From: a virus
Taxonomy: Duplodnaviria; Heunggongvirae; Uroviricota; Caudoviricetes
Length of the DNA: 34,744 bases
Strand: one strand, 5' to 3'
IMG/VR virus record: IMGVR_UViG_2574180160_000007
Below the pieces are notes generated by a model. It had not been told where the DNA came from and did not search any database. It saw only the letters and a list, made by a program, of their open reading frames with translations. Below, one piece after another: positions 28,536 to 34,427 of this stretch. Made by a program: the position numbers and the translations under genes. Numbering within the stretch: position 1 is the stretch's first letter; each line of letters begins with the position of its first letter.

Positions 28536-29026
28536 GTATCCTCCGGATAATAAAAAGCCAGCTTAGTGCACTGAGTGCGGATATATTCCTGCGCCCCTTC
28601 CAGCTGCTTCTGCATTGTCATCAACCGTTCTCTGAGGATGAAATAATCCCGTTCAGCGGTGTCTGCCAGTCGGGGGCCGGTTGCATTATCCACGCTGGAG
28701 GTGCCGGTGGCTTCACGCACGGTACCGGGGCAGGTGGCGTTGACCCGCAGGCGCTTACGACCAGCGGCAACATCAGCGCGCAGAGTTTCATTTTCAGCTC
28801 TCGCATCGGCTAATTCCTTCGTGTATCTGGCATCAAGCGCAGCGACATCTCGCTGGCGCTGCTGCATGTCAGTAATAGTGGCATTCGCCAGTTTCAGCTC
28901 ACTGACTTTTTTATCGCGCTGCGCTTTGTAGGTGATGGCGTTATCGCGGTAATGATTCAGCCCCAGACTAAGCACACCACAGGCTACCAGCAGGACAATA
29001 ATCACCACACACAGAACACGGTTCAT
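28532..29026 (-). CDS. Rz: Rz i-spanin (start at MNRVLCVV)
   Basis: ..[68 protein letters not shown]...[32 protein letters not shown] closely matches lambda Rz. Confidence 0.9.
28621..28806 (-). CDS. Rz1: Rz1 o-spanin lipoprotein, embedded in Rz in the +1 frame
   Basis: [22 protein letters not shown]...[32 protein letters not shown]: lipobox LVVSAC and Pro-rich motif as in lambda Rz1. Confidence 0.85.
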
Positions 29027-29244
29027 ATCACCACCAACGGATTGCCCAGACCAGAACAGCAATGGCCACAATACGAATGGCAAATGCCATTGCCCGAATA
29101 AGTTCAGCACTCATCTTTTTAAAGTTCACGATTTCAGCGCAATGACCAGTTTTGCCAGCCCATACAGCATCGGAGACACAGCAATACCAACAGCCACCCA
29201 CTTAATAGCAAAAGCCAGCGCTCTGCTGATGTCATCAGTCACTG

Positions 29245-29376
29245 TCACCCCAGCAGCCCCGACGAAGACAACATCACCCAGGCGAAGGACAGAAAAAGAG
29301 CAACCAGCATTAGTGAAAATGAAATACCGACAATCACACACAGGACCTTTGCCGGCGTTATGAGTTTGTCTGACAT
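29245..29376 (-). CDS. Candidate 43-aa hydrophobic peptide (MSDKLITPAKVLCVIVGISFSLMLVALFLSFAWVMLSSSGLLG)
   Basis: ATG preceded by AAGGGG Shine-Dalgarno; single predicted transmembrane helix; an adjacent frame encodes a second hydrophobic segment (..AFAIKWVAVGIAVSPMLYGLAKLVIALKS). Confidence 0.3.
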   Translation of the reverse strand: MSDKLITPAKVLCVIVGISFSLMLVALFLSFAWVMLSSSGLLG

Positions 29377-29378
29377 AG

Positions 29379-29474
29379 CTACCCCTTAATTGCCACAATT
29401 AACTGGGATACTACCCATAAAAAAGGGATGCTCCAGACCAGCAAAAATTTCCAGTTTGGTAATTGACTAATCAT
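29379..29474 (-). CDS. Candidate 31-aa hydrophobic peptide (MISQLPNWKFLLVWSIPFLWVVSQLIVAIKG)
   Basis: ATG with GGGAG upstream; stop 2 nt before the next peptide ORF. Confidence 0.25.
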   Translation of the reverse strand: MISQLPNWKFLLVWSIPFLWVVSQLIVAIKG

Positions 29475-29540
29475 GAGTCGCAACTCCCTAATCAGTTTGC
29501 TAAAATCAATCAAGGCAGCCTCCCATAGCTTACTGCCATA

Positions 29541-29580
29541 AAAACAAAACCCCGCTTGCTGCCAACAAACGGGGTTTTTA
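29541..29580. terminator. Bidirectional intrinsic terminator between the endolysin and the small-peptide/Rz region
   Basis: AAACCCCG-15 nt loop-CGGGGTTT with T-runs on both sides. Confidence 0.5.
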
Positions 29581-29668
29581 CTTTTATTCACTTACATTTT
29601 GCCAGTTCGCAGGATTTCGTGTTATCCATCCGCCTTGGCCAACGTCATTTATTAGCAAAATATTCTGC

Positions 29669-30202
29669 TTATCTGTCGATTCCCCAGCACGCCAGCGCGC
29701 TCTCCTGGTCACGACGGGATACCTGACCGTAACAGTTATTTGAGCGAATACGGCAGTCCCTGCCACCGTCCTTAATCCACCAGCGAATCGCCTCACACGC
29801 TCCCCTGCGATCACCTGCATTAATTCGTTTATAAAACGTCGACGGAAAACACTTACCGGGGCCAATGTTGTACGGACAGAATGACGCGATCCCCGCTTTC
29901 TGGGGTTCACTCAATGGCACTCTGATGTTTTTCTCCACCCATGCCAGCGCCTTATCACGCTCAATGGCGTTAACCCGGTCGCATTTTTCCTTCGACAACT
30001 TCATGCCAGGAACGACAGGTTTGCCATCCACCAGGATGGCACCGCGGCAGATGGTCCAGATACCCGCGCCATCACGGTATGCCGTGGTGTGGTTACCTTC
30101 CTTTTCATCCAGAAACTGGTCGAGAATGTCAGGCGCAGGCGCACCAGCGGCAATCAGCGCCAGAACGGCAGCCGACAGGCCGTATTTGATTTTGGTGTTC
30201 AT
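29669..30202 (-). CDS. R: SAR endolysin (T4-lysozyme/GH24 family, signal-anchor-release type)
   Basis: Gly/Ala-rich weakly hydrophobic N-terminus YGLSAAVLALIAAGAPAP followed by catalytic E-x8-D-x5-T (EGNHTTAYRDGAGIWT). Confidence 0.9.
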   Translation of the reverse strand: MNTKIKYGLSAAVLALIAAGAPAPDILDQFLDEKEGNHTTAYRDGAGIWTICRGAILVDGKPVVPGMKLSKEKCDRVNAIERDKALAWVEKNIRVPLSEPQKAGIASFCPYNIGPGKCFPSTFYKRINAGDRRGACEAIRWWIKDGGRDCRIRSNNCYGQVSRRDQESALACWGIDR

Positions 30203-30265
30203 GGATATTTATCAGGATTTATCGGTTTCTGCCCACGGACAGGTTTATCTGTTCCGGTCAGTGAC

Positions 30266-30616
30266 TTAAGGTTGTGATTCCGGAGGAGTCTTCAGAGAAC
30301 CAGTAATTATTCCCGGTAGCTTTCCTTTGTAGGTTATCCATACATTCTGCGCCTCTAAAATTACGGGGCGCTTTTCCGGCGACTGCTCATCCCCTTCACA
30401 TAACCCGGCAGCAACATCCAGGAAGACCTGTCTGATGCTCCTTCTGGCTGCTGCCTCATAAAACTCCAGCGTGGCACCTTCAACACGGTCCAGCGAGATG
30501 TCCAGGTCAAAAATTTCACCGTCAAAGCGTTTTTTGTCCCGTAACGCTAAAGTTACCGTAACTTTATTCTCAAAATTGCGGATCCCTTTCACAATCAGTT
30601 CATAGTTTTGAGTCAT
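30266..30616 (-). CDS. DUF1327-like (YdfR-like) protein between holin and endolysin
   Basis: 116 aa MTQNYELIVKGIRNFENKVTVTLALRDKKRFDGEIFDLD...; same position as ydfR in E. coli Qin-type lysis cassettes, from memory. Confidence 0.55.
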   Translation of the reverse strand: MTQNYELIVKGIRNFENKVTVTLALRDKKRFDGEIFDLDISLDRVEGATLEFYEAAARRSIRQVFLDVAAGLCEGDEQSPEKRPVILEAQNVWITYKGKLPGIITGSLKTPPESQP

Positions 30617-30620
30617 TGAA

Positions 30621-30836
30621 TTACTCTCCCCGTGCAGCCTTACGACGGTCCTCTCTGATTTTGAAATACAGGTTAGTCAGATATGTCAGCAGCCCAAACA
30701 GCAGACTCCCCAGCACGCCTATTGCCGCCCACTGAGACGGGGAAACCCTGTCCAGCAACTGCAGGAACCAGTAGCCCGTTCCCACCGCTGACGTGGTGTA
30801 TGACACACCTGTTGTGATTTTTTCCATCTGGTACAT
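30621..30836 (-). CDS. S: Class II pinholin, S21-like, dual start (71-aa form from MYQMEK; 68-aa form from the internal Met at 30827)
   Basis: [68 protein letters not shown] matches phage 21 S21 (..[36 protein letters not shown]). Confidence 0.85.
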
Positions 30837-30869
30837 ACCCCGTCTCCCGTTATCCGGAAGCTGACAACA

Positions 30870-30902
30870 ATAAAAAAAGCCACCAGTTAAGTACTGATGG
30901 CT
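30870..30902 (-). terminator. Intrinsic terminator between nanS-p and the holin gene
   Basis: Minus strand AGCCAUCAG-UACUUAA-CUGGUGGCU followed by UUUUUUU, about 35 nt before the holin start. Confidence 0.55.
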
Positions 30903-30986
30903 CTGATAACTCATGCAGGCATCTCAGACGACCCACTGACACTACCGGTGAGTTTAACGATACCTTCCATTTGACTGGCTCACTTT

Positions 30987-33103: not shown

Positions 33104-33439
33104 ATGAAGTGGATTGTGATTGATACAGTTATCCAGCCATCATGCGGAATATCTTTTTCAGTCATATGGAGTAAAATAAAATTAATAATCTGGTATCAAT
33201 CGGATGCTTTCTTACCTCCTGAAAGTATATTTACACTGACTCACACAGGCATCATGCTCAATAACAAAGTGCTGCCTGTAACCATTTACAACGTAGTACC
33301 ATTCAATAAAACATTCTGGAATTTAATCAAAAACAGCCAGGAATGCCCTACAAATACAGATAACGTATTGAATGAATGCTTTAATAACCGTTGCACTCTG
33401 CAAATATGTCCTTATGGGCTAAAACAACAAAGTCCATAA
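33104..33439 (+). CDS. Hypothetical 111-aa Cys-containing protein, AT-rich, divergent from the late operon (cargo in the stx slot)
   Basis: ATG with AAGGAAA Shine-Dalgarno; upstream TTTACA/TATACT-like promoter elements; strongly AT-rich relative to neighbours; no family recognised. Confidence 0.4.
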
Positions 33440-33475
33440 GGAGTTTACTCACATCTGACAAAATCAATATAAACA

Positions 33476-33498
33476 GCCCCTCCGGAGAGGGGCTGGAG
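33476..33498 (-). terminator. GC-rich hairpin (CAGCCCCTC-CGGA-GAGGGGCTG) with T-run on the minus strand
   Basis: Perfect 9-bp stem, 4-nt loop; on the minus strand followed by UUUAUAUUGAUUUU. Confidence 0.4.
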
Positions 33499-33886
33499 AG
33501 TGGCGCTATGTGCCATTGCATGGTGCCGGGTGCCTCCCGGTGAATTCAGTACCAGCACCTGAATCCGCGATTATCCCATATACCTACTCGCTGATTGCCC
33601 CTCCGCACAGGGGGATTCACCATGCCAGTTTCTTTTAACAAACTCCCCGCAAACCAGACAACAGTCAACCGCCTGAATTGTGAAGTATTTAAAAATTTCT
33701 CCCGCTAACTGATACCCGGCTAACAGTCTGGCGTTTTCTTTTTCAGCAACGGGAAAGCAGCAACCACCACACCCGCCACCAGCACACCGTCAGCCAGCAC
33801 TGACATTATCCGGCTGCTGCAATGCCATTCACAAAAACAGTAAGCAATCACTTTTTACCGTAACCGGTGATAATCCAGATATGTAT

Positions 33887-34350: not shown

Positions 34351-34427
34351 TGGCGCGCTGTACTGGATTCGAACCAGTGACCGATTGCTTAGAAGGCAAT
34401 TGCTCTGTCCGGCTGAGCTAACAACGC
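34351..34427 (-). tRNA. tRNA-Arg (anticodon UCU), phage-borne (argN/argO-like)
   Basis: Minus strand GCGTTGT-TA-GCTC-AGCCGGACA-GAGC-A-ATTGC-CTTCTAA-GCAAT-CGGTC-ACTGG-TTCGAAT-CCAGT-ACAGCGC-G-CCA folds as a canonical 77-nt cloverleaf with TCT anticodon. Confidence 0.85.

Follow-up and report, generated by a model that had tools for sequence, protein, structure and literature searches.

The region from position 30266 to 30836 of the window, the 34,744-nt stretch of viral DNA analysed here, is together with its flanks the ordinary lysis module of a lambda-like Escherichia coli prophage, and has already been annotated as such. The module consists of a holin gene (S), ydfR, a lysozyme gene (R) and the spanin genes Rz and Rz1, all on the minus strand. 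We favour, with a probability of roughly 0.6, the reading that this is a standard module of a pinholin, a signal-anchor-release (SAR) lysozyme and spanins, accompanied by an optional accessory gene of the YdfR family. The feature is known and very common.

The 1.4-kb stretch from S through ydfR to R has 100% DNA identity to several E. coli chromosomes, and at least 80% of it is present in 2210 of 5426 complete E. coli genomes (about 40%). RefSeq labels the three genes as "class II holin family protein", "YdfR family protein" and "lysozyme". The gene order in an identical genome is Q antiterminator, DNA methyltransferase, tRNAs, iraM, SASA esterase, holin, YdfR, lysozyme, Rz, terminase, and head and tail genes; the esterase encoded 5′ of the holin has the DUF1737-SASA-DUF6645 architecture of the NanS-p type in Pfam. 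The prophage itself is probably of a lambdoid type resembling Shiga toxin (Stx) phages, without the toxin and with a standard lysis module. The prophage Qin of strain K-12 has the same order, essQ-ydfR-rrrQ-rzpQ/rzoQ (b1556–b1553), with the same 4-nt gap between the holin gene and ydfR. An earlier note on this DNA had presented the intervening gene as an extra ORF; given the Qin arrangement, the RefSeq annotation and the 2210 genomes counted above, it is not unusual.

The module would be read leftward, within a Q-dependent late operon. The S gene would yield a pinholin of the P21 family, of which the weakly hydrophobic first transmembrane domain (TMD1) would exit the membrane. Oligomers of the second domain (TMD2) would then form small pinholes, and the proton-motive force would collapse. 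This collapse would free and activate the lysozyme, exported by Sec and tethered to the membrane by its SAR domain, after which the outer membrane would be disrupted by the Rz/Rz1 spanin. We infer this four-step route by homology from the phage 21 family, in which it is established.

The holin (71 aa; 30621–30836, minus strand) was identified from its open reading frame (ORF), Pfam and PHROG. It matches Pfam PF04971 (Phage_holin_2_1, "P21 holin S") over residues 5–67 of 71, with an E-value of 9e-33 and 112.5 bits against a cutoff of 26, and PHROG holin families also match. The TMD1 candidate, T8–L27, is weakly hydrophobic and SAR-like, with a mean Kyte-Doolittle value of 0.36 and 55% G/A/S/T, and the TMD2 candidate, Q35–Y57, is strongly hydrophobic (mean 1.21); the C-terminal tail is basic. 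This pattern fits the design of a pinholin. Phage 21 encodes the holin S21-68 and the antiholin S21-71, and the window holin shares with them the PF04971 match, the two TMDs, the weak TMD1 and the Met1-x-x-Met4 start. S proteins of Stx phages have previously been placed among the pinholins, in the P21 holin S family (PMC10462455).

A second in-frame ATG is found at codon 4 (30825–30827, minus strand) and would give a product of 68 aa. The earlier note was correct in giving this P21-family holin two possible start codons in one frame, and two holin isoforms are plausible. The upper limit of 30914 that it gave for the cassette is the first ATG of a spurious 97-aa holin ORF, which we rejected: the extension contains a terminator-like hairpin, has no Shine-Dalgarno (SD) sequence, lies outside the Pfam model and is not in RefSeq. 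Because the extension crosses this hairpin without an SD, and RefSeq agrees in the identical genome, the holin coding start was placed at 30836. The holin SD, GGGAG at 30844–30848, lies 6 nt 5′ of this first ATG (ATG1), with an anti-SD duplex of −7.4 kcal/mol, and is predicted by RNAfold to be held in a 6-bp hairpin, CUUCCG/CGGGAG (30844–30860, minus strand). The GGGG run directly before ATG1 could serve as SD for the ATG at codon 4.

The earlier note had further read the MYQM start as an antiholin/holin arrangement. Both starts are present, but in an atypical form. The antiholin character of S21-71 and of lambda S107 has been attributed to an additional positive charge (PMC9636201), whereas the three-residue extension of the 71-aa form in the window is Met-Tyr-Gln, with neither Lys nor Arg. 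Because this extension adds no basic residue, antiholin behaviour of the 71-aa form is not inferable. K-12 EssQ, identical to the window holin at 56 of 71 positions, differs in starting with MKSM and thereby having a basic Lys2. In S of phage H-19B, ATA replaces ATG1, so that only the 68-aa form is possible. The 120 closest holin clusters include starts of the types MYQM (33), MYRM (20), MKSM (18), MLRM (6), MDQM (4) and MNQM (3), and 13 with a single start; the extension is basic in about half of them and uncharged or acidic in many (MYQM, MDQM and MNQM), and the M-x-x-M frame is widely retained. Among these homologues (P0214–P0333), Met1-x-x-Met4 persists also in those that lack a basic residue in the extension, and one base change separates MYQM from MYRM. 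The uncharged extensions raise the question whether the long isoform remains an antiholin in phages of the Stx type. Possibly, the MYQ, MDQ and MNQ variants are pinholins of which the long isoform is not an antiholin.

The lysozyme (177 aa; 29669–30202, minus strand) is a T4-type lysozyme of the RrrQ/933W R type, identified by Pfam (PF00959, Phage_lysozyme, E-value 1.3e-23) and from its sequence. It is identical to K-12 RrrQ at 156 of 177 positions, and the canonical catalytic triad of T4 lysozyme was confirmed as E35-x8-D44-x5-T50. The N-terminal segment Y7–P24 (YGLSAAVLALIAAGAPAP) is weakly hydrophobic and Ala/Gly-rich, with 56% G/A/S/T, is preceded by K4 and K6, and looks like a SAR domain. 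This agrees with the SAR endolysin of the earlier note; the gene lies outside the interval assigned there to the cassette. The Ala-x-Ala motifs in the N-terminus are followed by Pro, which presumably disfavours signal peptidase I. Relatives in the PDB include R21 of phage 21 (3HDE/3HDF) and RrrD (4ZPU). R21 has both a SAR-like N-terminus and the E-x8-D-x5-T triad, but is, like RrrD, only a distant relative (3HDE, E-value 8.6e-16). The designation of the cassette as P21-type, also made in the earlier note, therefore strictly suits the holin and not the RrrQ/933W-type lysozyme.

The gene between S and R (30266–30616, minus strand) encodes a soluble protein of 116 aa that belongs to the YdfR family according to Pfam and PHROG. 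It matches Pfam DUF1327 (PF07041) with an E-value of 6.2e-43 and 145.4 bits (cutoff 25), confirming the DUF1327 gene recognized in the earlier note, and PHROG 406, a family without assigned function, with an E-value of 3.7e-68. The Pfam matches of the holin, the lysozyme and this gene exceed chance by a wide margin. The gene starts 4 nt past the holin stop and is served by the SD GGGGAGAG, which lies within the last holin codons (30624–30631, minus strand; 8-nt spacing, −8.1 kcal/mol). The ratio of nonsynonymous to synonymous substitution rates (dN/dS) of codons 1–69 is 0.26 in comparison with K-12 and 0.20 in comparison with H-19B, and that of the tail is 0.43. The strong SD and a dN/dS of about 0.2 indicate that ydfR is a genuine, translated gene. 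Antisense ORFs across ydfR were rejected, because dN/dS favours the minus-strand frame.

Searches of phage records with tblastn found the holin in 434 and DUF1327 in 101. Among 124 Stx2a phages with the holin, DUF1327 was found in two. The 933W-type Stx2a phages, represented by Stx2_EH1846 (LC567840), have a 100% identical holin, a lysozyme of the same family and an upstream nanS-p as in the window, but no ydfR; their R starts 4 nt past the S stop. A four-way alignment showed a clean indel, extending from just past the S stop to just before the ATG of R. Phage 21 (M65239) is likewise not known to have a gene between S and R. The order S, DUF1327 ORF, R, Rz occurs in H-19B, BP-4795, Stx2-86, YYZ-2008, mEp460 and many Stx1a and Stx2c phages, with a leader at the right boundary as in the window; the ORF is annotated in some of these and not in others, and the H-19B record leaves it unannotated. 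From these comparisons, we conclude that ydfR is an optional accessory late gene and no core component of lysis. The YdfR family comprises 331 clusters in 5.8 billion proteins, and 89 representatives in 1.84 billion.

The presence of ydfR would alter the way in which R is translated. In cassettes lacking ydfR, the SD GGGGAGAG inside S serves the endolysin ATG located 4 nt past the S stop. In the window, ydfR and R are separated by a 63-nt spacer (30203–30265, minus strand), the 3′ end of which, CCGATAAATCCTGATAAATATCC, was recognized by alignment as the conserved right boundary of the slot between S and R. The leader of the lysozyme gene is A/U-rich, and its last 25 nt showed no anti-SD complementarity, the best value being +0.3 kcal/mol; R of H-19B and R in the locus of a 176-aa YdfR variant (L010) have the same SD-less leader. 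Since ydfR takes the SD embedded in S and leaves the lysozyme with an SD-less leader, translation of the endolysin would be uncoupled from that of S. Judging from these features, a filled slot very likely changes endolysin translation. The arrangement in K-12 differs: the 103-aa YdfR ends in an unrelated tail, and the stop codon of ydfR overlaps the start of rrrQ (ATGA), whereas the window has a tail resembling that of H-19B followed by the SD-less spacer.

The YdfR protein consists of a core domain (residues 1–72; beta-beta-beta-alpha) and a variable tail module (residues 73–116). Residues 1–69 are identical to K-12 YdfR at 57 of 69 positions (83%) and to the H-19B protein at 37 of 69 (54%), while residues 70–112 are identical to H-19B at 36 of 43 (84%) and unrelated to K-12. 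The alignments therefore indicate that ydfR of the window is a mosaic of a K-12-like N-domain and an H-19B-like tail. The slot is hypervariable, with variants of 103, 114–116, 176–196, 206 and 287 aa that have a common left part and then diverge; the right boundary before R is conserved among them. The L010 locus retains the S-ydfR-R order, with a gap of 321 nt, and has the boundary CCGATAAATCCTGATAAATATCC-ATG. Alternative C-terminal modules were seen in several variants (P0003, P0021, P0025, P0104, P0130, P0131 and P0154, and L010 2501–3352); some of these modules are coiled-coil-like, and lengths reach 176–287 aa. The tail "EKRPIILEAQ.VWITYKGKLPG.ITGSLKTPP" was also found behind a different N-terminus (P0154), and the 176-aa variant is present at least twice in E. 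coli CP065611.1.

A profile search detected stand-alone homologues of the N-domain, of 72–76 aa, in Pantoea, Yersinia and Sodalis, with Tyr53 and Glu54 invariant. Contexts outside E. coli came from four viral contigs (L004 and L007–L009), three of which (L004, L008 and L009) were examined; single-protein scans of genome contigs with P0170 and P0186 gave no match. In one Pantoea-type contig (L009), the 72-aa homologue lies between the Q antiterminator and a cassette of Phage_holin_3_1, GH19 endolysin and Rz/Rz1. In another (L008), the homologue lies between hicAB and a cassette of a holin, a T4 lysozyme without SAR domain and Rz/Rz1. In the Yersinia-type contig (L004), the homologue comes after the tail genes L and K and an ORF of 217 aa; the latter has no Pfam match and is read as I-like by its position. 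From these contexts, the core domain appears to behave as a "moron" of the late region, often near lysis genes and not bound to pinholins or SAR endolysins. Beside the 72-aa homologue, both Pantoea-type contigs have a divergent, conserved 100-aa ORF (MEGLDF.KPLSSQLDKVLPHL...; L008 5053–5355 and L009 5240–5542, both minus strand). This ORF gave no Pfam, NCBIfam or PADLOC match, and may form a two-gene module with the DUF1327 homologue.

YdfR of the window is slightly acidic, has a maximum 15-residue hydropathy of 0.9 and contains no transmembrane segment, and is thus expected to be soluble. A first AlphaFold2 model, based on a shallow alignment, was poor, with a predicted local distance difference test (pLDDT) score of 56. 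With distant homologues added, the model had antiparallel strands at 5–14, 18–27 and 34–43 and a helix at 50–71 with pLDDT 80–95, and a tail (74–116) of low confidence. Foldseek searches of the PDB and BFVD returned nothing at an E-value of 1e-3 or below. The top matches (protein tyrosine phosphatase domains, endonuclease V and de novo beta-sheet designs) share no theme, and a fold assignment was dropped. Profile searches of all PDB sequences with two YdfR alignments gave only noise (E-values of about 0.3). NCBIfam had no match, and the PADLOC defence models had none at an E-value of 0.01 or below. DUF1327 was the sole Pfam match and all PHROG matches are to families of unknown function, with no known antiholin or lysis-regulator family among them. 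Literature searches on essQ/rrrQ and on the lysis ORFs of H-19B yielded nothing useful, and the sole mention of DUF1327 was incidental.

The connection with RNase E comes from recent work on the K-12 protein (PMC13232886, 2026). There, a two-hybrid assay showed binding of residues 1–72 of K-12 YdfR to Rne(1-597); Rne(1-598) was recovered together with purified Strep-YdfR, and so was nucleic acid resistant to DNase. We infer the same role for YdfR of the window because of the 83% identity over this binding region. Tentatively, and with somewhat less than even confidence, we regard YdfR as a soluble protein of the cytoplasm that uses its conserved domain of 72 residues to bind RNase E at the catalytic N-terminal half, and possibly to bind RNA; its action would then be on RNA metabolism at a late stage of infection. 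T4 Srd, T7 gp0.7 and phiKZ Dip are small phage proteins directed at host RNase E. Their relation to YdfR is one of functional analogy only, with no similarity in the PDB and BFVD searches, which were made without a direct comparison. In a bolder version, which we regard as doubtful, YdfR/DUF1327 proteins would be a phage-encoded class with an orphan beta-beta-beta-alpha fold that binds RNase E or RNA, travels in the hypervariable slot between S and R of lambdoid lysis cassettes and stabilises or reprogrammes late transcripts at a late stage of infection; the inserted gene would also deprive the endolysin of its SD and so shift the balance between holin and endolysin.

Several points weigh against the favoured reading. 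For the holin and lysozyme of the window, behaviour as a pinholin and as a SAR endolysin is deduced from family membership and sequence features, and neither sequence profiles nor Foldseek found similarity of YdfR to a known RNase E regulator or RNA-binding fold. The interaction with RNase E was reported for the K-12 protein only, in overproduced form, and the full-length protein scored with Rne(1-597) alone; its overexpression changed few transcripts, and the authors could not rule out that the RNA came from a contaminant (PMC13232886). Furthermore, the Keio ydfR deletion mutant was positive in a chlorophenol red-β-D-galactopyranoside (CPRG) screen, marking it as envelope-defective, that is, leaky or lysing (PMC3879167 supplement). 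Finally, ydfR of E. coli is nearly always located exactly between S and R, which hints at a link with lysis. The last two observations, together with translation of ydfR from an SD within S at this precise position in E. coli and Shigella phages, and the distant homologues in Pantoea-type phages that still adjoin lysis cassettes, speak for YdfR as a cytoplasmic lysis regulator. Such a regulator could be antiholin-like or endolysin-modulating and bind the basic cytoplasmic C-tail of the pinholin or the lysozyme before export and so adjust when lysis occurs, following a logic comparable to that of T4 RIII or P1 LydB. We consider this unlikely. The identical holin allele works without ydfR in most Stx2a phages, homologues accompany unrelated holin and endolysin types, one of them being located among tail genes, and searches of Pfam, PHROG, PDB and BFVD revealed no resemblance of YdfR to any known antiholin. 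Overexpression of ydfR in K-12 caused no growth defect (PMC13232886), and we suspect that the CPRG phenotype arises because the kan cassette is polar on rrrQ, the SAR lysozyme gene that lies downstream. The role in lysis timing implied by the earlier note consequently found no comparative support, as the same holin allele occurs without ydfR and homologues lie outside the holin-endolysin pair, by other lysis types. An antiholin label for YdfR on position alone was rejected.

The hypervariability of the slot, with diverging variants and a conserved right boundary before R, the mosaic nature of ydfR itself and the missing SD of R whenever the slot is filled would also be expected if the protein had no role of its own and the slot were a recombination hot spot for mosaic "moron" DNA, with at most an effect in cis that uncouples endolysin translation from S and alters the S:R ratio. 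The purifying selection on the N-domain, with dN/dS values of 0.2–0.26, makes this quite improbable, as do the stand-alone conservation of the 72-aa domain across Escherichia, Pantoea, Yersinia and Sodalis with its two invariant residues and the specific protein interaction reported for K-12 YdfR (PMC13232886). Even less can be said for YdfR as a factor that benefits the lysogen or acts against other phages and whose expression from the prophage does not depend on late transcription; this we regard as very improbable. The moron-type positions in all contexts agree with it, and in the identical genome the same prophage backbone bears iteAS and iraM as further cargo; but a scan of the minus strand around ydfR revealed no sigma-70-like promoter, terminator-like hairpins bracket S-ydfR-R, and there was no match to PADLOC or NCBIfam defence families. 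Moreover, ydfR has almost no reads in K-12 under standard growth (PMC13232886).

The cassette itself matters little, being a textbook module with a gene of the long-annotated YdfR family, which occurs in a large part of E. coli genomes, K-12 included, and in classic Stx phages. Its value is that of a pointer to a late gene that is very common in Stx-type prophages, has no detectable fold relatives and has newly been linked to RNase E by experiment. Should YdfR influence the stability of late mRNA or the balance between holin and endolysin, this would matter for lysis timing, and thus for the release of toxin by Stx lysogens.

The remaining parts of the module are the spanin genes and two terminator-like hairpins. 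The i-spanin Rz (28532–29026, minus strand; Pfam Phage_lysis, E-value 7e-51) was given the start annotated by RefSeq in the identical genome, and differs from RzpQ of K-12, which is a DUF2514 protein. The o-spanin lipoprotein Rz1 (28621–28806, minus strand; ORF and Pfam) lies inside Rz in another frame. A hairpin with a 12-bp stem and a T7 tail (30876–30904, minus strand; scan and fold) is located between the nanS-p-like esterase gene and the holin gene, about 40 nt 5′ of the holin start. A strong hairpin with a 15-bp stem and T-run (29546–29578, minus strand; scan) follows about 90 nt 3′ of the lysozyme stop. The scan gave 8 terminator-like sites where 2.7 were expected. Presumably, readthrough of both bracketing hairpins needs Q-modified polymerase.

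The interval of about 640 nt between R and Rz (29027–29668, minus strand) forms a second variable slot, with small ORFs that have hydrophobic C-termini; in other phages, Rz and R overlap directly or lie about 300 nt apart. For this interval, the RefSeq annotation of the identical genome lists three hypothetical proteins. We found minus-strand ORFs of 90 aa (29126–29398; PHROG 3246, E-value 4e-58), 43 aa (29245–29376; PHROG 4906) and 70 aa (29379–29591; PHROG 6632, residues 28–69 only). These PHROGs are of unknown function, and the ORFs had no Pfam, NCBIfam or PADLOC match. Elsewhere in the window, an IraM-like anti-adapter ORF (33104–33439, plus strand) was located from the annotation of the identical genome, and an STnc100 small RNA (33465–33654, minus strand) and an IS009 match near the tail-fibre end (3459–3657, minus strand) with Rfam; a tRNA-Arg(tct) (34351–34427, minus strand) is also present. 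In the identical prophage of NZ_AP022177.1, the part beyond the right end of the window (L002 29624–33017) carries the anti-phage pair iteS/iteA between the replication genes and the Q region.

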